Origin: Enterobacteria phage vB_EcoM_IME340 | Strand: one strand, 5' to 3' | Length of the DNA: 64,000 nt | Sequence record: MH051916 | Part shown: one piece after another, positions 6,110-49,733 of the stretch | Layout: each line of letters starts with the position of its first letter | Numbering within the stretch: position 1 is the stretch's first letter | Program-made: the position numbers and the translations under genes | Notes under the pieces: generated by a model | The model's database searches: none | Seen by the model: only the letters and a program-made list of their open reading frames with translations | Told to the model about the DNA's origin: nothing

Positions 6110-7438
6110 ATGCAACTGAATAATCGTGATTTAAAAAGTATCATTGATAATGAAGCATTGGCTTATGCTATGTACACGGTTGAAAATCGTGCTATTCCAA
6201 ATATGATTGATGGATTTAAGCCAGTTCAACGATTTGTTATCGCTCGAGCTCTTGATTTGGCACGGGGAAATAAAGATAAGTTTCACAAACTCGCTTCTAT
6301 TGCAGGTGGTGTAGCTGACCTTGGATATCATCATGGCGAAAACTCCGCACAAGATGCGGGGGCTTTGATGGCTAACACTTGGAATAATAACTTTCCTTTG
6401 TTAGATGGTCAAGGAAACTTTGGTTCTCGTACTGTTCAAAAAGCAGCGGCAAGTCGTTATATTTTTGCTCGTGTAAGTAAAAATTTCTATAACGTATATA
6501 AAGATACTGAATATGCTCCGGTACATCAAGATAAAGAACACATTCCGCCTGCTTTCTATTTGCCTATTATTCCTACTGTTCTTCTTAATGGTGTTTCCGG
6601 TATTGCAACTGGTTATGCAACTTACATTCTTCCTCATAGTGTTTCTTCTGTCAAGAAAGCTGTACTACAAGCTCTTCAAGGAAAGAAAGTAACTAAACCG
6701 AAGGTAGAATTCCCAGAATTTCGTGGTGAAGTCGTTGAAATTGATGGCCAATATGAAATTCGTGGAACGTACAAGTTTACTTCACGAACCCAAATGCATA
6801 TCACTGAGATTCCATATAAGTATGATCGTGAAACTTATGTGAGTAAAATCTTAGACCCGCTTGAAGATAAAGGCTTCATTACATGGGATGATGCTTGTGG
6901 TGAGCATGGTTTTGGCTTTAAAGTTAAATTCCGCAAAGAATACTCTTTGAGCGATAACGAAGAAGAACGCCATGCAAAAATCATGAAAGACTTCGGGTTG
7001 ATTGAGCGTCGTTCTCAGAATATTACAGTCATTAACGAGAAAGGAAAGCTGCAAGTTTATGACAACGTAGTTGATTTAATCAAAGACTTCGTTGAAGTTC
7101 GTAAAGATTATGTCCAAAAACGAATTGATAACAAAATCAAAGAAACTGAATCAGCATTTCGTTTAGCCTTTGCCAAGGCGCATTTCATTAAGAAAGTAAT
7201 TTCAGGTGAAATTGTTGTGCAGGGTAAAACTCGTAAAGAACTGACCGAAGAACTTTCTAAAATTGATATGTATTCTTCTTATGTTGATAAACTAGTCGGA
7301 ATGAATATTTTTCATATGACTTCTGATGAAGCAAAGAAACTTGCTGAAGAAGCTAAAGCTAAGAAAGAAGAAAACGAATATTGGAAAACTACTGATGTAG
7401 TTACCGAATACACTAAAGATTTAGAGGAAATCAAATGA
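6110..7438 (+). CDS. 52: DNA topoisomerase II medium subunit
   Basis: 442 aa as in T4 gp52; GyrA-like N-terminus (PVQRFV motif). Confidence 0.9.
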   Translation: MQLNNRDLKSIIDNEALAYAMYTVENRAIPNMIDGFKPVQRFVIARALDLARGNKDKFHKLASIAGGVADLGYHHGENSAQDAGALMANTWNNNFPLLDGQGNFGSRTVQKAAASRYIFARVSKNFYNVYKDTEYAPVHQDKEHIPPAFYLPIIPTVLLNGVSGIATGYATYILPHSVSSVKKAVLQALQGKKVTKPKVEFPEFRGEVVEIDGQYEIRGTYKFTSRTQMHITEIPYKYDRETYVSKILDPLEDKGFITWDDACGEHGFGFKVKFRKEYSLSDNEEERHAKIMKDFGLIERRSQNITVINEKGKLQVYDNVVDLIKDFVEVRKDYVQKRIDNKIKETESAFRLAFAKAHFIKKVISGEIVVQGKTRKELTEELSKIDMYSSYVDKLVGMNIFHMTSDEAKKLAEEAKAKKEENEYWKTTDVVTEYTKDLEEIK

Positions 7439-40422: not shown

Positions 40423-40541
40423 TTATGTTGACGAGGTTTATGGTTATCCTGTCGGTAAATATTCAAAACCTAAGTACCCCTTGAGGGCTTTCGCAGGCAA
40501 TGCCAATAAGTCCTGCATTTTCATTTAAAAGAGAATTTATA

Positions 40542-40718
40542 ATGGCAAAACAAGCTAAAGCAAAGAAAGCAGTTGAAAAGAAAGTTGGTGATTCTAAACG
40601 CGCTGGTTACAAGCGTGGGTCGAACTCTCGTATCAATCAAACTGTTGAGAAGATCATGCGCCGAGCACGTGCGGTTCTTCGAGATGATGCTTCTCGTTTT
40701 GGTAAGCAGAAAGCATAA
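40542..40718 (+). CDS. small basic hypothetical protein (30.9 position)
   Basis: 58 aa from internal ATG; Lys/Arg-rich. Confidence 0.35.
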   Translation: MAKQAKAKKAVEKKVGDSKRAGYKRGSNSRINQTVEKIMRRARAVLRDDASRFGKQKA

Positions 40719-40721
40719 GTT

Positions 40722-40750
40722 GAGGACTCCTTCGGGAGTCCTTTTTTATT
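40722..40750 (+). terminator. intrinsic terminator
   Basis: GGACTCC-TTCG-GGAGTCC then TTTTTTATTTT. Confidence 0.7.
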
Positions 40751-40828: not shown

Positions 40829-41161
40829 ATGAAAACGATTAATCTGAACGCTGCGGTTAAAACTAAATGCTTCAATGGTAAATATGATGAAACTATGTGG
40901 TTCTTAATGGCAGTTGAAGGTGATATTGTTGAAGTAGAAACAACAGAAGGTATGGGAACAGATTTCACCTTTACAATTCAAGTTCATAATTTCTTTACTG
41001 GTTGGATTTATGAATTGAATACAGTAATCGTTGGAAAAATTGAACAAAATGAATTAGGTGAATGGTATTATGTTACAGCTCGCCAACGTGCCGAACGCTT
41101 AATTGAGAAGATGAAAAAAGTTGGTAAACTTGACATGCAGCACTGGAAAGTAGTAAAATAA
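40829..41161 (+). CDS. hypothetical protein (30.8 position)
   Basis: 110-aa ORF, early promoter and AAGGAG SD upstream. Confidence 0.4.
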   Translation: MKTINLNAAVKTKCFNGKYDETMWFLMAVEGDIVEVETTEGMGTDFTFTIQVHNFFTGWIYELNTVIVGKIEQNELGEWYYVTARQRAERLIEKMKKVGKLDMQHWKVVK

Positions 41162-41634: not shown

Positions 41635-41922
41635 ATGTTTATGACTACTTATTTTGATACTCGTAAAAATTTTTGCGAAGTAGTTTTCTCTAAGGCGCCT
41701 AAAGACCTTCCTGCTCATTTGCAGCCTACCAGTGAATCGATTAAAAACTATGTTAATGCAGTCTGCCCTTTAGAGTTCCGTACTGTAAATGGGCGTGATA
41801 CTCTAGCTATCGCTAAACTCAATCGTGAAATTGACATTGACCCTTCAATTGCGCGTGAAATTAACATTTCTGATATTGACGGCGGTAATGTTAAATCGCA
41901 TGGTTTTCAGATGAGGTTCTAA
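41635..41922 (+). CDS. hypothetical protein (30.6 position)
   Basis: 95-aa ORF. Confidence 0.4.
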   Translation: MFMTTYFDTRKNFCEVVFSKAPKDLPAHLQPTSESIKNYVNAVCPLEFRTVNGRDTLAIAKLNREIDIDPSIAREINISDIDGGNVKSHGFQMRF

Positions 41923-42119
41923 TGAAATTCTTTTTGGGTCAAACTGTTGAATTAAAGGGAGTCGGTATACCTGGATTAATTTCTAAGGTTCTACCTCCAT
42001 TTAAATGGAGTGGTATTCAAATAAAAGAGGCTTATATTGTTTCCTGGGTAGATGGAAATGAAGACCTTCGTATGGGTGATGAATTATCTCCTATCTATGG
42101 ATTAAAGGAATTAGTATGA
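41922..42119 (+). CDS. hypothetical protein (30.5 position)
   Basis: 65-aa coupled ORF. Confidence 0.35.
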   Translation: MKFFLGQTVELKGVGIPGLISKVLPPFKWSGIQIKEAYIVSWVDGNEDLRMGDELSPIYGLKELV

Positions 42120-42322
42120 ATATAATTAATAAGATTTTTGGAATTCAGTACATTAAGGTCACATATAAAGTAACGTATAAAGGTCCGTATACCGATGAAC
42201 ATGAAGAACCACAAGTTAAGTCTATTATATTAGAAAAGGACCCTAACTGGCCAGTTGAATTTCGTCTTCCTTGCTATGGTCATTGGGCTGATGTTGAAAT
42301 TATAAGTATTGAAAATGTTTGA
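42116..42322 (+). CDS. hypothetical protein (30.4 position)
   Basis: 68-aa coupled ORF. Confidence 0.35.
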   Translation: MNIINKIFGIQYIKVTYKVTYKGPYTDEHEEPQVKSIILEKDPNWPVEFRLPCYGHWADVEIISIENV

Positions 42323-42773
42323 GCTAGAGATAAGAAGTAATTTTAGATGGCCATCATGTGCATTAAGTAATTTCGCCCAATGGCCTTTTGTTATGGATGG
42401 TATCCAATTTGGAGGTCTCGAAGGATTCCTCCAAGGATGTAAGGTGAAAAGTGTTGAACAGCAAAGACGTATATTTGGGATGTCTGGGCTTGCCGCCCAA
42501 CAAGCTGGAAGGTCTTATGCTAGAGCTCAGGACCGTGGCACGTTGTTCTGGCTTGGAACACCATTTTCAAGATACTCTCCAGCGTGGAAAGAATTATACA
42601 CAAATGCATATTTTGAAGCAGCGATCCAAAACAGGGGTTTTCGTGATGCATTACAAGCCTCGAAAGGAAAAGTTTTGAAGCACAGCATGGCTAGTGGTCT
42701 AACAAAAGATGATACAATACTAACCGAAGCTGAATTTATTGATGTGTTAAACCTATTAAGAGACTCTCTATGA
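42309..42773 (+). CDS. NADAR / YbiA-like domain protein (30.3 position)
   Basis: 154 aa; LSNFAQWPFVMDGIQF resembles the YbiA/NADAR signature (FSNFAAWP..DG). Confidence 0.55.
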   Translation: MKMFELEIRSNFRWPSCALSNFAQWPFVMDGIQFGGLEGFLQGCKVKSVEQQRRIFGMSGLAAQQAGRSYARAQDRGTLFWLGTPFSRYSPAWKELYTNAYFEAAIQNRGFRDALQASKGKVLKHSMASGLTKDDTILTEAEFIDVLNLLRDSL

Positions 42774-43615
42774 AGCCAACTATTTTGACTGATATTGATG
42801 GAGTATGTTTAAGCTGGCAATCAGGCCTTCCTTATTTTGCTCAGAAATATAATCTTCCATTAGAACATATTTTAAAAATGATCCAAGATGAGAAATTTAT
42901 TTCTCCAGGTAAACTCTTTAATTGTGACGAAGAACTTGGCGTCAAGTTAATTGAAAAATACAATCGTTCAGATTTTATTCGTTACTTGTCTCCGTATAAA
43001 GATGCCCTGTGTGTAATTAACAAATTAAAAGAAGATTATAATTTTGTAGCTGTTACAGCATTGGGTGATTCTATTGATGCTCTATTAAATCGTCAATTTA
43101 ATTTGAATGCTCTTTTTCCTGGTGCCTTTTCAGAAGTAATGATGTGTGGTCATGATTCTTCAAAAGAAGAGTTGTTCAAAAAGGCAAAAGAGAAATATAA
43201 CGTAATTTGTTATATTGACGATCTCGCTCATCACTGCGATCATGCGAGTGAAATATTAAATGTTCCTGTTTATTGGATGGCTCGAGGAGAACGTGACAAT
43301 ATTCCAAAAACTGCTCAGCGAGTTTATACATGGAATGATGTAGAAAATAAGCTTTTTTCACCAAAGGAAAATAAAGAAAGTTTTGATAGTGAAAAAGCTA
43401 TAAAAGATGTAATTGAGAAGATGGTTAAAAACGATTCTTTTCCTTGGAATACTACCTGGAGAACGCCTGGATTTAATCCTTATAATCCATATTATCTATA
43501 TCATCCATATCAGACACATCCGTTTCAGACATGGAACTATATTAAACCTGGTGGCATAGAGTATTTGTATAATAGACCTACTAGTGGTGATAATATTTTT
43601 CAAGGAGCATTCTAA
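42770..43615 (+). CDS. HAD-superfamily hydrolase-like protein (30.2 position)
   Basis: 281 aa; N-terminal ILTDIDGV HAD motif I. Confidence 0.5.
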   Translation: MKPTILTDIDGVCLSWQSGLPYFAQKYNLPLEHILKMIQDEKFISPGKLFNCDEELGVKLIEKYNRSDFIRYLSPYKDALCVINKLKEDYNFVAVTALGDSIDALLNRQFNLNALFPGAFSEVMMCGHDSSKEELFKKAKEKYNVICYIDDLAHHCDHASEILNVPVYWMARGERDNIPKTAQRVYTWNDVENKLFSPKENKESFDSEKAIKDVIEKMVKNDSFPWNTTWRTPGFNPYNPYYLYHPYQTHPFQTWNYIKPGGIEYLYNRPTSGDNIFQGAF

Positions 43616-43884
43616 TGTTTGTTGTTCATACTATTTATGAAAATGAAGGTAATACTACACGTGATTACGGTCACGTAAATCAATTTTTTAGATGCAATCC
43701 AGAATTCCGTGCTCAAAAAGACGAACGAATTTTTAAAAAATGTGTAGAACAAGGTTTCATTTACGTCAAGCACTGGATGCAAGGAAATAAAGTTAGAACT
43801 ACATATCATAAGTCTTTGCCTGAGCTTAATGATGAATTGATTTATAATAGAAATGTAAATCAAACTCTGAAGGATGAACAATGA
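43615..43884 (+). CDS. hypothetical protein (30.1 position)
   Basis: 89-aa ORF coupled at both ends (ATGA overlaps). Confidence 0.4.
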   Translation: MFVVHTIYENEGNTTRDYGHVNQFFRCNPEFRAQKDERIFKKCVEQGFIYVKHWMQGNKVRTTYHKSLPELNDELIYNRNVNQTLKDEQ

Positions 43885-45341
43885 TTCTTAAAATTCTGAA
43901 TGAAATAGCATCTATTGGATCAACTAAGCAGAAGCAAGCAATTCTTGAAAAGAATAAAGATAATGAATTGCTTAAACGAGTATATCGTCTGACTTATTCT
44001 CGTGGGTTACAGTATTATATCAAGAAATGGCCTAAGCCTGGTATTGCTACCCAGAGTTTTGGAATGCTGACTATTACCGATATGCTTGACTTCATTGAAT
44101 TCACGTTAGCTACTCGGAAATTAACTGGCAATGCAGCAATTGAGGAATTAACTGGATATATCACCGATGGTAAAAAGGATGATGTTGAAGTTTTGCGTCG
44201 AGTTATGATGCGAGACCTTGAATGCGGTGCTTCAGTATCTATTGCAAACAAAGTTTGGCCAGGTTTAATTCCTGAACAACCTCAAATGCTTGCAAGTTCT
44301 TATGATGAAAAAGGCATTAGTAAGAATATCAAGTTTCCAGCCTTTGCGCAGTTAAAAGCAGATGGAGCTCGGTGTTTTGCTGAAGTCCGAGGCGATGAAT
44401 TAGATGATGTTCGTCTTTTATCGCGAGCTGGTAATGAATATCTAGGATTAGATCTTCTTAAGGAAGAGTTAATCAAAATGACTGCTGAAGCCCGCCAGAT
44501 TCATCCAGAAGGTGTGTTAATTGATGGCGAATTGGTATACCATGAGCAAGTTGAAAAGGAACCAGAAGGCCTAGATTTTCTTTTTGATGCTCCTGAAATC
44601 AGTAAAGCTAAAGAAGTCGCCGAAGTAGCTGAATCACGCACTGCTTCTAATGGAATCGCCAATAAATCTTTAAAGGGAACTATTTCAGAAAAAGAAGCCA
44701 AATGCATGAAGTTTCAGGTCTGGGATTATGTTCCGTTAGTAGAAATATACGGTCTTCCGGCGTTTCGTTTAAAATATGATGTACGTTTTTCTAAACTAGA
44801 ACAAATGACATCAGGATATGATAAAGTAATTTTAATTGAAAACCAAGTAGTAAATAACCTAGATGAAGCTAAGGTAATTTATAAAAAATATATTGACCAA
44901 GGCCTTGAAGGTATTATTCTCAAAAATACCGATGGATTGTGGGAAAATGCTCGTTCAAAAAATCTCTATAAATTTAAAGAAGTAATTGATGTTGATTTAA
45001 AAATTGTAGGAATTTATCCTCACCGTAAAGACCCTACTAAAGCGGGTGGATTTATTCTTGAATCAGAGTGTGGAAAAATTAAAGTAAATGCAGGTTCAGG
45101 CTTAAAAGATAAAGCTGGCGTAAAATCACATGAACTTGACCGTACTCGCATTATGGAAAACCAAAATTATTATATTGGAAAAATTCTAGAGTGCGAATGC
45201 AATGGTTGGTTAAAATCTGATGGCCGCACTGATTACGTTAAATTATTTCTTCCGATTGCGATTCGTTTACGTGAAGATAAAACTAAAGCTAATACATTTG
45301 AGGATGTATTTGGTGATTTTCATGAGGTAACTGGTCTATGA
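43881..45341 (+). CDS. 30: ATP-dependent DNA ligase
   Basis: 486 aa; adenylation motif KADGAR; matches T4 DNA ligase. Confidence 0.95.
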   Translation: MILKILNEIASIGSTKQKQAILEKNKDNELLKRVYRLTYSRGLQYYIKKWPKPGIATQSFGMLTITDMLDFIEFTLATRKLTGNAAIEELTGYITDGKKDDVEVLRRVMMRDLECGASVSIANKVWPGLIPEQPQMLASSYDEKGISKNIKFPAFAQLKADGARCFAEVRGDELDDVRLLSRAGNEYLGLDLLKEELIKMTAEARQIHPEGVLIDGELVYHEQVEKEPEGLDFLFDAPEISKAKEVAEVAESRTASNGIANKSLKGTISEKEAKCMKFQVWDYVPLVEIYGLPAFRLKYDVRFSKLEQMTSGYDKVILIENQVVNNLDEAKVIYKKYIDQGLEGIILKNTDGLWENARSKNLYKFKEVIDVDLKIVGIYPHRKDPTKAGGFILESECGKIKVNAGSGLKDKAGVKSHELDRTRIMENQNYYIGKILECECNGWLKSDGRTDYVKLFLPIAIRLREDKTKANTFEDVFGDFHEVTGL

Positions 45342-45526
45342 AAGCTTACTTAGAAACAATTGTCGTGGCTCAAAAAGAAGGTGGAGATGTTTCTACTTCT
45401 GTATCACAAATCGTTCTCGAATTTGTAGATGCATATGCTTATAATAAATTTACAGAAACATTTGATGCCTACGAAAAAGGTCCAAAGTTTGAAATATATC
45501 GTACTCTCTTACCACTAGATTATTAA
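45338..45526 (+). CDS. hypothetical protein
   Basis: 62-aa coupled ORF. Confidence 0.35.
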   Translation: MKAYLETIVVAQKEGGDVSTSVSQIVLEFVDAYAYNKFTETFDAYEKGPKFEIYRTLLPLDY

Positions 45527-45547
45527 AGGCCTTCGGGCCTTTAATTT

Positions 45548-45555
45548 TATAAATA
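45548..45555 (+). promoter_or_regulatory. late promoter TATAAATA upstream of alt genes
   Basis: exact TATAAATA ~25 nt before alt start, just after a UUCG hairpin (45525-45543). Confidence 0.55.
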
Positions 45556-45578
45556 GAATAAACACTAGAGAGGATATG

Positions 45579-47672
45579 ATGGAACTTATTACAGAATTAT
45601 TTGACGAAGATACTACTCTTCCGATTACAAACTTAAATCCAAAGAAGAAAATACCGCAAATTTTTTCAGTTCATGTTGATGACGCAATTGAACAACCAGG
45701 CTTTCGTTTATGTACCTATACATCTGGAGGTGATACTAATCGCGATTTAAAGATGGGCGATAAAATGATGCATATTGTTCCTTTTACATTAACTGCTAAA
45801 GGTTCAATTGCTAAATTAAAAGGTCTCGGTCCAAGCCCAATTAATTACATCAATTCAGTTTTTACTGTTGCAATGCAGACGATGCGTCAGTATAAAATTG
45901 ATGCCTGTATGCTTCGTATTCTTAAGTCTAAAACTGCTGGTCAAGCTCGACAAATTCAAGTTATTGCTGATAGACTTATCCGTAGTCGTTCAGGTGGCAG
46001 ATACGTCCTTCTTAAGGAACTCTGGGATTATGATAAAAAGTACGCATATATTCTTATACATCGCAAAAATGTATCACTAGAAGACATTCCAGGAGTTCCT
46101 GAAATTAGTACCGAGCTCTTTACTAAGGTTGAATCGAAAGTCGGCGATGTTTATATCAATAAAGATACTGGAGCTCAAGTAACTAAAAATGAGGCAATTG
46201 CAGCATCTATTGCACAAGAAAATGATAAACGCTCTGACCAAGCTGTTATCGTTAAAGTTAAAATTTCCCGTAGAGCAATTGCACAAAGTCAGTCATTAGA
46301 ATCTTCTAGATTTGAAAGCGAATTATTCCAGAAATATGAATCTACCGCAGCTAATTTCAATAAACCTGCTACAGCTCCTTTAATTCCCGAAGCAGAAGAA
46401 ATGAAGCTTGGAATTAATTCATTAGCTTCTAAAACTAAGGCAGCAAAAATTATTGCCGAAGGAACCGCAGATGAACTTCACTATGACTATAAATTCTTTT
46501 CAAAAAGTGAGGTTAATGAAGTTTCTGAAAAAATTAAAGATGTAATTCTTAATGCGATTAAAAATGAACCAACTACTTCAATAAAATGTTTAGAGAAATA
46601 CGCAGCAGCTGTTAATCAATTATTTGAAGAATATAAAGATAATTGGCTTGATAAACATAATAAAACTCGTAAAGGGCAGCCAGATGAAGTCTGGGAAGAA
46701 ATAACTAAAAATTCCTGGAACGCAGCAAAAACTAAATTCCTCAAACGAATGATTTATAGCTTTTCTGGAATTGGTGCAGGTCCAATGATTGATATTACCA
46801 TTGCACGTGATGGTTCTAAATATACTCCATCACAAAAGCGCGGCATTAGAGAGTATTGTGGATCAGGATATACTGACATCAATAATCTTCTTTTAGGCCG
46901 CTACAATCCAGAACGATATGATGTAATGAGTGAAAAAGAAATTGAATCTGCGATAAATAATTTAGATTCAGCCTTTGAAAATGGTGACCGTATACCAGAA
47001 GGCATTACAGTTTATCGTGCTCAAAGCATGACTGCTCCTATATACGAAGCATTAGTTAAAAATAAAGTATTCTATTTCAGAAATTTTGTATCTACTTCTT
47101 TAACTCCTATCATTTTTGGACGTTTTGGAATTACACATGCTGGTATTGGTCTTTTAGAACCAGAAGCTCGTAATGAATTGACAGTTGATAAAAATGAAGA
47201 AGGAATAACTATTAATCCAAACGAAATAAGAGCGTATAAAGAAAATCCTGAATACGTTAAAGTTCAAATAGGATGGGCAATTGATGGAGCTCATAAAGTT
47301 AATGTTGTATATCCAGGAAGTCTCGGAATAGCAACAGAAGCTGAAGTTATTCTACCACGCGGATTGATGGTCAAAGTTAATAAAATAACTGATGCTTCTA
47401 ATAATGATGGAACAACATCTAATAATACAAAACTCATTCAAGCTGAAGTTATGACTACGGAAGAACTCACCGAATCAGTCATTTATGACGGTGACCGTCT
47501 AATGGAAACCGGCGAAGTAGTTGCAATGACAGGTGATATTGAAATAGAAGACAGAGTTGACTTTGTATCATTTGTTTCATCAAATGTTAAACAGAAAGCA
47601 GAATCATCTCTCGGAATTATTGCGTCTTGCATAGATATTACAAACATGCCTTACAAGTTCGTTCAAGGATAA
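45579..47672 (+). CDS. Alt-family ADP-ribosyltransferase, paralogue A
   Basis: 697 aa from MELITELFD; R-S-E ART motif (YRAQ, FVSTSL, EAEVILPRG). Confidence 0.8.
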   Translation: MELITELFDEDTTLPITNLNPKKKIPQIFSVHVDDAIEQPGFRLCTYTSGGDTNRDLKMGDKMMHIVPFTLTAKGSIAKLKGLGPSPINYINSVFTVAMQTMRQYKIDACMLRILKSKTAGQARQIQVIADRLIRSRSGGRYVLLKELWDYDKKYAYILIHRKNVSLEDIPGVPEISTELFTKVESKVGDVYINKDTGAQVTKNEAIAASIAQENDKRSDQAVIVKVKISRRAIAQSQSLESSRFESELFQKYESTAANFNKPATAPLIPEAEEMKLGINSLASKTKAAKIIAEGTADELHYDYKFFSKSEVNEVSEKIKDVILNAIKNEPTTSIKCLEKYAAAVNQLFEEYKDNWLDKHNKTRKGQPDEVWEEITKNSWNAAKTKFLKRMIYSFSGIGAGPMIDITIARDGSKYTPSQKRGIREYCGSGYTDINNLLLGRYNPERYDVMSEKEIESAINNLDSAFENGDRIPEGITVYRAQSMTAPIYEALVKNKVFYFRNFVSTSLTPIIFGRFGITHAGIGLLEPEARNELTVDKNEEGITINPNEIRAYKENPEYVKVQIGWAIDGAHKVNVVYPGSLGIATEAEVILPRGLMVKVNKITDASNNDGTTSNNTKLIQAEVMTTEELTESVIYDGDRLMETGEVVAMTGDIEIEDRVDFVSFVSSNVKQKAESSLGIIASCIDITNMPYKFVQG

Positions 47673-47675
47673 ATC

Positions 47676-49733
47676 ATGGAACTTATTACAGAATTATTTG
47701 ACGGCGCTTCGGCGCCGATTGTTAACTTAAATCCTAAGCATAAAATACCTCAAATTTTTGCTATTCAAGCCGGTGAAGAAAGCGTGCTTCCTGGATTTAG
47801 ATTTTGTACATACACCTCTGGCGGTGATACAAATAAAAACGTTAAGCCAGGCGATAAAATGATGCATATCGTAATGATAGGTGTTAATGAGAAACTATCA
47901 TTAGTTAAACTTAAAAACTTGGGTGGAAATCCAATTGGTGTCATTAATGCGGTTTTTGATACTGCTCTTCAGACAATGAAACAATACAAAATTGACGCAT
48001 GCTTATTCCGCGTACTAAAGAGTAAAACAAATGGTGCAGCTCGTCAAATGCAAGTTATTGCCGACCGTTTAGTACGTACTAAAGGAGCAGGTCGATATGT
48101 TCTTTTAAAGGAAATCTGGGATTACGATAAAAAGTACGCATATATTATGGTTTACCGTAAAAATGCTAATTTAGAAGACACTCCAGGTGTACCTCCTATT
48201 TCAACTGAGTTATTCACAAAAGTTGAATCAAAGGTTGGTGATGTTTATGTAGATGTTAAAACCGGTAATGCTGTTCCTAAAGCTGTTGCTGTTGCTGCTT
48301 CTATTGCTTTAGAAAACGATAAGCGCACGGATCAAGCTGTTATTCAGAAAACTAAAATTAGTCGTCGGTTAGCAGCACAAGCTCAATATTCTACTGTCGA
48401 TGCTTCACTTCAGGGTGATAGCTTCGCTGCTAAGAAATATCAAGAGTTTGAATCTAAAGTTCCGGTATATAAAGCAGAAGGACCAATGAACTCTGGCGTT
48501 ATTCAGGTTGGTTCAAACTTCAGCAAAGGAGCTATCGGTGGTATGAGAAGTGCTTCCCGTTTTAAATCTAGTGATTATGAATTAGAAAGCTTCCGAAATC
48601 ATATTGCATTGGCTCATGCGCGTTTACGTGATCCATCTATCAAGTTACAGAGCGATATATCATATCAAGGTTCTCAAGAATATTTAAAGAATAAAGAATT
48701 TTTTGATTATAAAACTGATAAAATTTTAAGCGATCTTGCTGACATTAATATTTCTAATAGCTTTGATGTTATTAAGAAAATTATCAATGATTTAGTTAAA
48801 GGTTCTAAAGCTACGCCAGATGAAAAGACAGCTATTATTCAATTTGTCATGAATGGCATTTATAAATTGATTAATGAATCTGCTGCCCAGGCATATGAAT
48901 ACGCAAGCATCGAAGTAACTCCAAAAGAACTGACCCAGGCTGAGTCTGATGTGATTGAAGATTATTGTGCAGATTCATATGTTGAAATGAACTCGTTCCT
49001 TTTGGGTAAACCAGATTCTACCCGTGAAGAATACATGGAACGAGCTATTAAACACATCGAGACGCTGGATTCTGCCTTTGCCAAAGGATCAGTTCTTCCT
49101 CCAGGAACTACACTTTACCGTGGACAAGAAGTTACCTTTAAAACTTTGCGTCATAACATTGAAAATAAAATGTTCTATTTCAAGAACTTCGTATCCACAT
49201 CGCTTAAACCAAATATCTTCGGTGAGCATGGTAAAAACTATATGGCTCTAGATGATTCCGGCGCAGTATTTTCTGGTGAAGGAGAAGGTTCCGTTGATAC
49301 AGAAGATTTGATGCATATGGGTAGTCATTCTACATATGCTAATGAAGATGCTGAAACTAGCGTGGGTATGGTAATTAAAGGAGCTGAGCGAATCAAAGTT
49401 ATCGTTCCAGGTCATTTATCAGGATTTCCATCAGAAGCTGAAGTTATTCTACCGCGTGGAATTTTACTGAAGATTAATAAAGTAAGTACGTACTTTATGA
49501 AAGAAACTGCTTATAACAAGTATCTAATCGAAGGTACAATCGTTCCTCCTTCTGAACAATTAGAAGAATCAGTATATGATGGCGACCATCTAATGGAAAC
49601 TGGTGAAGTTCGTCCAATGGCTGGATTTAATCAATTCCTTGTAGAAGAATCAAAAGAAGAGGAAAATGAAGTTTCTCAAATCTTAGCTTCTTTGGTTAAC
49701 ATCAACGGAATGTCTAAAAAGTTCAAAATGTAG
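47676..49733 (+). CDS. alt: Alt-family ADP-ribosyltransferase, paralogue B
   Basis: 685 aa; same N-terminus and R-S-E motif (YRGQ, FVSTSL, EAEVILPRG); closer to T4 Alt length (682). Confidence 0.8.
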   Translation: MELITELFDGASAPIVNLNPKHKIPQIFAIQAGEESVLPGFRFCTYTSGGDTNKNVKPGDKMMHIVMIGVNEKLSLVKLKNLGGNPIGVINAVFDTALQTMKQYKIDACLFRVLKSKTNGAARQMQVIADRLVRTKGAGRYVLLKEIWDYDKKYAYIMVYRKNANLEDTPGVPPISTELFTKVESKVGDVYVDVKTGNAVPKAVAVAASIALENDKRTDQAVIQKTKISRRLAAQAQYSTVDASLQGDSFAAKKYQEFESKVPVYKAEGPMNSGVIQVGSNFSKGAIGGMRSASRFKSSDYELESFRNHIALAHARLRDPSIKLQSDISYQGSQEYLKNKEFFDYKTDKILSDLADINISNSFDVIKKIINDLVKGSKATPDEKTAIIQFVMNGIYKLINESAAQAYEYASIEVTPKELTQAESDVIEDYCADSYVEMNSFLLGKPDSTREEYMERAIKHIETLDSAFAKGSVLPPGTTLYRGQEVTFKTLRHNIENKMFYFKNFVSTSLKPNIFGEHGKNYMALDDSGAVFSGEGEGSVDTEDLMHMGSHSTYANEDAETSVGMVIKGAERIKVIVPGHLSGFPSEAEVILPRGILLKINKVSTYFMKETAYNKYLIEGTIVPPSEQLEESVYDGDHLMETGEVRPMAGFNQFLVEESKEEENEVSQILASLVNINGMSKKFKM

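Follow-up and report, generated by a model that had tools for sequence, protein, structure and literature searches.

Gene adfN (T4 gene 30.3) of Enterobacteria phage vB_EcoM_IME340 is predicted to encode a NADAR enzyme that reverses guanine ADP-ribosylation of phage DNA

The open reading frame between genes 30.4 and 30.2 in the 64,000-nucleotide stretch of Enterobacteria phage vB_EcoM_IME340 analysed here (record MH051916; hereafter the window) is, judged by its sequence, the Tequatrovirus gene adfN (gene 30.3 of T4), and its product is a bare NADAR core fold. We consider it very probable (roughly 93%) that this NADAR enzyme, as in T4, reverses the guanine ADP-ribosylation which the host toxin DarT1 places on phage DNA. 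With equal confidence we expect the window allele to act like T4 AdfN, given 96% identity, the predicted fold and the conservation of the catalytic residues. Both the NADAR assignment and the counter-defence function are already known, having been published and experimentally proven for the near-identical T4 protein, and the window adfN adds no new knowledge to that available in print on T4, T2 and related phages. Hereby, a reading made from the sequence alone recovered a true and only recently proven function, namely that of an orphan antitoxin-like enzyme in a lytic phage which repairs ADP-ribosylated DNA.

The adfN frame occupies positions 42309-42773 on the + strand and yields 154 amino acids when read from a TTG codon at 42309-42311, the start chosen in the initial annotation, or 152 amino acids plus stop when read from an ATG codon at 42315 (CDS 42315-42773). 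While the frame itself is borne out by the signature LSNFAQWPFVMDGIQF at 42363-42410 and by a Pfam match to PF08010 (E=3.4e-69), the TTG is probably not the true start, as indicated by the T4 length and the starts of the homologues. The ATG at 42315 is the likely start codon, because T4 30.3 is annotated with 459 nt and 152 amino acids, because the close relatives all begin M-S/F-E-L-E-I, and because no other start fits the published residue numbers E36 and K43. The opposite strand carries many stop codons. On the upstream side, the final eight bases of gene 30.4 (up to 42322) already belong to 30.3, and the adfN stop overlaps the start of 30.2 in an ATGA at 42770.

Compared to T4 gp30.3/AdfN, the window product is identical at 146 of 152 positions (96%) without gaps. 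The differences comprise six conservative substitutions (S2F, N46S, L56M, V82T, K107R and I124M), none of which falls in a conserved column of a 60-sequence family alignment; in this alignment I124M brings back the family consensus. A functional difference between the two alleles is thus not to be expected from these substitutions. The PF08010 (Phage_30_3) match scores 231 bits against a gathering cut-off of 36 and spans profile positions 1-138 of 138. Relatives of 30.3 are encoded in 1509 phage records, and a megablast search with positions 41900-43900 returned 686 phage records, nearly all of them Escherichia, Shigella or Yersinia Tequatrovirus (best identity 97.9%). The gene order in the window, pseT, cd, 31, rIII, 30.9 to 30.1, 30 (ligase), alt.1 and alt, is that of T4 and of phage NBG2, with adfN placed between 30.4 and 30.2 in the window as well as in T4. 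In PHROGs, 30.3, 30.2 and 30.1 are all listed as 'unknown function', and NCBIfam holds no model for any of the three.

The peptide LSNFAQWPFVMDGIQF (residues 17-32 counted from the ATG) had been described as close to the YbiA/NADAR signature, and this resemblance is confirmed by two alignments: both hmmsearch and hhalign place it opposite 'SNFAAWPIKVDGKTW' of YbiA. The underlying family alignment comprises 60 sequences, with relatives down to about 34% identity. Its profile matches E. coli YbiA (PDB 2b3w) over the signature region with E=0.0025, while hhalign of the family alignment against YbiA of E. coli K-12 gives a probability of 94.4% (E=9e-8, 91 columns). The Pfam NADAR family PF08719 is matched individually by 8 of the 60 family members (best E=1.5e-7). 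The window protein itself yields no direct match to PF08719 at E<=1; the NADAR link is therefore one of profile and fold level. Likewise, a phmmer search of the window protein against PDB sequences returned only a chance-level match (an ATP pyrophosphatase, E=1.3), so that the family profile is required to reach YbiA. An AlphaFold2 model, calculated from the family alignment without the T4 row, reached a pLDDT of 93.5 and a pTM of 0.89 and displays the alpha+beta fold of NADAR/YbiA proteins, with core helices and small beta-hairpins at the flanks. Taken together, the YbiA profile match, the hhalign result, the PF08719 matches and the AlphaFold2 model make the fold assignment secure, and the NADAR membership proposed initially holds by profile search and by structure prediction alike.

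Invariant columns of the 60-sequence alignment are P13, L17-S18-N19-F20, F25, E36-G37-F38, Q40, H123 and T134-x-L136-T137, and K43 is conserved in at least 90% of the sequences. In the window, Glu36 is encoded by GAA at 42420-42422 and Lys43, a phosphate-coordinating catalytic residue, by AAG at 42441-42443; substitution of either (E36A, K43A) impairs T4 AdfN (PMC11825919). Their counterparts are E43/K50 in the P. nicotianae NADAR (PnNADAR) and E88/K95 in the E. coli C7 NADAR (PMC11543638), and the 7-residue spacing of the characterised NADARs is retained within an N-terminal signature of the form SNF...E-x6-K. The last strand carries His in gp30.3-type, Glu in YbiA-type and Asp in DarG1-type proteins (PMC11125620, PMC11543638, PMC12945103). 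Hereby, the hallmark His of the gp30.3 clade is present in the window protein as His123 (CAC, 42681-42683), next to a strand which the model places at residues 120-122. The C-terminal helix (residues 138-152, positions 42726-42770; helical at 138-151 in the model) is intact, since the frame reads through to residue 152, and the last 28 residues are identical to those of T4.

For the T4 orthologue the function has been established directly, and published work shows adfN to be both necessary and sufficient for DarTG1 resistance of T-even phages. Recombination with RB69, a sensitive phage, traced the DarTG1 resistance of T2 and T4 to 30.3, which was then renamed adfN (PMC11825919, Johannesman et al., Nat Commun 2025). 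T4 and T2 no longer form plaques on DarTG1 cells once adfN is deleted, RB69 is rescued when adfN is expressed ectopically, and purified AdfN, but not its E36A variant, strips ADP-ribose from DarT1-modified DNA; rescue is weaker with E36A, K43A or an RB69-like truncation (all PMC11825919). RB69 itself is DarTG1-sensitive and carries an adfN frameshift by which the last 15 residues, and with them the C-terminal helix, are lost (PMC11825919). In line with these data, insertions in 30.3/adfN were lost specifically on DarTG1 hosts in an independent transposon screen, HIDEN-SEQ (bioRxiv 10.1101/2025.11.20.689424). The counter-defence role against ADP-ribosylating host toxins suggested for the window gene is thus the one by which its orthologue, 96% identical, counters DarT1 (PMC11825919). 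With regard to the substrate, guanine or thymine in DNA had been considered initially; of the two, the T4 NADAR cleaves guanine-ADPr and leaves thymine-ADPr intact (PMC11125620; guanine also PMC12945103), and T4 AdfN gives no protection against DarTG2 (PMC11825919).

Based on these findings the following mechanism would most likely apply to the window protein. When the host defends itself with the toxin-antitoxin system DarTG1, its toxin DarT1 would put ADP-ribose on guanines of the phage DNA, and the modified guanines would block phage replication. AdfN would then hydrolyse the N-glycosidic bond between guanine and ribose, whereby the unmodified guanine would be regained and replication could proceed. 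Catalysis is predicted to involve Glu36 and Lys43 of the N-terminal signature (LSNF...EGFLQGCK), with His123 of the last strand probably taking part as well, and should require the C-terminal helix.

The action of AdfN appears to depend on its context. Against DarT1 in uninfected cells T4 AdfN has no neutralising effect (PMC11125620, PMC11825919), and it rescues T5 and Bas25 only weakly (PMC11825919); therefore, the enzyme alone is insufficient to explain the phenotype. A further T-even factor needed by AdfN has accordingly been postulated by the authors of that study (PMC11825919). The identity of this factor is the one question on which the window touches, by offering candidate neighbours for the role. 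One such candidate is gene 30.2 (42770-43615, + strand), whose start overlaps the adfN stop and whose product is 97% identical to T4 gp30.2. It is composed of a HAD-fold phosphatase-like domain (residues 1-197, mostly with pLDDT above 90 in the AlphaFold model) and a disordered tail. All four HAD motifs (DxD, S/T, K and DD) are present together with a Rossmann-like HAD fold; among 53 relatives the residues D8, D10, G11, K132, D150 and D151 never vary, and T96 is kept in at least 90%. A Foldseek search with the model gave 112 PDB matches at E<=0.001, the best 50 of which all belong to the HAD superfamily. The best match is the 5'(3')-deoxyribonucleotidase 2jao (E=1.6e-8), to which a weak profile match (E=0.038) was obtained as well. 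Motifs, fold and 2jao matches thus show that the gene was correctly called a HAD-like hydrolase; judged by its model, gp30.2 is a genuine HAD-fold protein nearest to the 5'(3')-deoxyribonucleotidases.

The tail of gp30.2, for which disorder is predicted over residues 221-281 (about 43430-43612 in the window), is rich in Tyr, Pro and Asn (…PGFNPYNPYYLYHPYQTHPFQTWNY…). Its length and sequence are highly variable among phages, and it is missing in many, for which the alignment is confined to the first ~68% of the protein. If gp30.2 were the factor missing outside T-even infection, where AdfN is not fully active, it might localise or stabilise AdfN via the disordered tail, or might process the reaction product. 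We regard such a role as improbable, however: the coupling of the two genes is tight only in some lineages and gives way to distances of ~55 kb in others, and the preprint text on the DarTG1 screen names adfN alone (bioRxiv 10.1101/2025.11.20.689424). A literature search for 'gp30.2' returned nothing.

Downstream of 30.2 follow gene 30 (43881-45341, + strand) for an ATP-dependent DNA ligase (PF01068, E=2.2e-32), annotated as DNA ligase in T4 and close relatives as well, and two Alt ADP-ribosyltransferase genes in tandem. Hereby, the first Alt gene (45576-47672, + strand; PF03496, E=1.6e-37) encodes a protein with 70% overall identity to T4 Alt by BLASTP, and the second, intact paralogue (47676-49733, + strand; PF03496, E=2.6e-20) one with 41% identity. 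The initial placing of a ligase and two Alt transferases about 3 kb from adfN is accurate, the Alt genes beginning 2.8 kb downstream. The first Alt is a mosaic with respect to the T4 protein: residues 1-247 and the last ~100 residues are nearly identical, whereas the centre including the transferase domain is much diverged. At the position of the second Alt, where an intact tandem paralogue is found here, T4 retains only the short remnants alt.-1 and alt.-2. A small open reading frame between ligase and alt (45338-45526; alt.1 in T4) matches PF24647, 'Phage blade protein' (E=1e-29).

This neighbourhood had been read as a possible offence-and-repair toolkit for ADP-ribosylation. Under a rival explanation of this kind, AdfN would have co-evolved and act in concert with gp30.2, the ligase and both Alt proteins, and might, for instance, reverse or proofread the phage's own Alt-type marks. 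Such a reading draws on the arrangement of the genes, as all of them share one strand and fit into 7.5 kb, and as each gene from 30.5 to 30 overlaps the next with its stop codon. Furthermore, the + strand showed no terminator-like site in a scan of positions 41900-45576, up to the alt genes; genes 30.5 to 30 could accordingly be transcribed together, with the qualification that the promoter-like and terminator-like scans performed no better than shuffled controls and are of descriptive use only. Early expression of T4-like NADARs together with ARTs is also on record, and an earlier publication already pointed out that T4-like NADAR genes lie close to the ARTs (PMC9503650). Further upstream the same descriptive scans found a strong terminator-like hairpin at 40722-40743 on the + strand (9 bp stem, GAGGACTCC…) after an open reading frame at 40500-40718, and, at 41130-41159 on the + strand, where 30.8 has its 3' end, the sequence of this region that comes nearest to a sigma-70 promoter (11/12). 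Annotated features of NBG2 lie at both places.

To evaluate the synteny, 80 viral loci encoding 30.3 relatives were searched within +/-10 kb for the neighbouring genes of the window, among them 30.2, 30.1, ligase and Alt, by single-sequence tblastn (E<=1e-4), a search that could miss very divergent Alt homologues. The order 30.3-30.2-ligase(-Alt) is kept in close relatives with at least 84% AdfN identity and at a few more distant loci, namely L016-L018 (with Alt), L058, L060, L076 and L077; with Alt included it occurs in Tequatrovirus/Mosigvirus-like phages and in some Acinetobacter-type T4-like phages (L016-L018). One further locus, L040, showed a single HAD match at 25% identity. At ~67 of the 80 loci, however, comprising nearly all distant ones, 30.2, ligase and Alt are absent from the +/-10 kb searched, and in phiR1-RT 30.3 lies at 75.4 kb and 30.2 at 130.4 kb, with a similar separation of about 54-58 kb in fHe-Yen9-01 and EcS1. 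On the basis of these 80 loci and the phiR1-RT-type genomes, a conserved toolkit module is therefore rejected. Thus, the 30.3-30.2-ligase-Alt arrangement is inherited, lineage-specific synteny of one part of the T4-like genome and not a conserved functional cluster.

The chemistry of the neighbours points in the same direction. The window ligase is of the ATP-dependent type (PF01068) and not NAD-dependent, and therefore does not involve NAD chemistry. The targets of Alt are protein arginines, as a note in the T4 record likewise states. The NADAR activities described in PMC11125620, PMC11543638 and PMC12945103, in contrast, all act on nucleobase N-glycosidic bonds, and our literature search found no published test tying NADARs to Alt-type protein-arginine ADP-ribosylation. 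Moreover, 30.3/adfN is the one gene reported for DarTG1 in the text on the T4 screen (bioRxiv 10.1101/2025.11.20.689424). We thus consider a co-evolved toolkit of this kind highly unlikely, and this part of the initial annotation does not stand.

Least likely of all is that the protein mainly serves, instead of DNA repair, to break down small soluble compounds derived from ADP-ribose, be they immune signals or toxic metabolites, or reactive riboflavin intermediates as YbiA does: YbiA-type NADARs are indeed N-glycosidases of riboflavin intermediates (PMC9503650, PMC11543638), but the T4 orthologue has been shown directly to remove ADP-ribose from DNA (PMC11825919), its phenotype is DarTG1-specific (PMC11825919 and bioRxiv 10.1101/2025.11.20.689424), the gp30.3 clade has His where YbiA has its defining Glu, and this clade groups closest to the DarG1 antitoxins and not to YbiA (PMC11825919). 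A second activity of AdfN besides DNA repair is possible. NADARs also remove guanine-ADPr from RNA in vitro (PMC12945103); therefore, DNA may not be the sole physiological substrate of AdfN.

Several annotation features of the locus and its relatives deserve mention. Within adfN, a second frame of 75 codons at 42451-42678 (+ strand) corresponds to T4 30.3', which the T4 annotation describes as 'internal translation, in a different reading frame'; its start codon is GTG in the window and ATG in T4. Among relatives with 84% AdfN identity or more, most keep this frame open over 76 codons, but distant ones do not. In phage NBG2 (NC_054925, 97.5% identical) the RefSeq 30.3 starts from an internal Met and comprises 126 amino acids (6489-6869 of locus L001), which cuts off the LSNF catalytic signature, and the same length of 126 amino acids recurs in several metagenomic gene calls of 30.3 relatives. 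A real N-terminal truncation in NBG2 is rejected, because the full 152-codon frame is open. The 126-residue annotations seem to result from a wrongly assigned start codon, which would conceal the NADAR signature. In Klebsiella phage Roth17 (PQ657791.1) the region under the 30.3-homologue match, 65848-66285, is annotated as 'anti-CBASS protein acb1'; probably, this is a mis-annotated NADAR-family gene or the label stems from a neighbouring gene. Finally, the T4 NADAR construct is given as 'gp30.3; residues 1-208' in Methods 4.2 of PMC11125620, a range that compares with 152 amino acids for T4 gp30.3; a tag, another phage or a typing error may account for the difference.

Among known systems, the window protein resembles T4 gp30.3/AdfN most closely, sharing 96% identity over 152 residues, the same gene neighbours, E36, K43, H123 and the C-terminal helix. 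The DarG1 NADARs, such as the Geobacter lovleyi NADAR (8bat) and the E. coli C7 NADAR, have an N-terminal extension, whereas the window protein consists of the core domain only, and they carry Asp in the last strand in place of His. DarG1 is furthermore the partner of an adjacent DarT1 toxin gene, while neither such an extension nor a neighbouring DarT gene is found for the window adfN; nor can DarG1 be replaced by T4 AdfN in uninfected cells (PMC11125620, PMC11825919). E. coli YbiA (2b3w; PF08719) differs from the phage clade by Glu instead of His; it has a housekeeping role as N-glycosidase of riboflavin intermediates, and its gene belongs to an operon under LexA control (PMC11125620). AdfA (T4 61.2 family) and AdfM (T4 tk.4 macrodomain) serve the same purpose as AdfN, i.e. 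the defeat of DarTG in T-even phages, with folds that are both unrelated to the NADAR of AdfN. Hereby, the R164H variant of RB69 AdfA acts by direct association with DarT1 and not enzymatically, unlike AdfN (PMC11825919), and AdfM is a macrodomain directed against the thymine-modifying DarTG2 (bioRxiv 10.1101/2025.11.20.689424).
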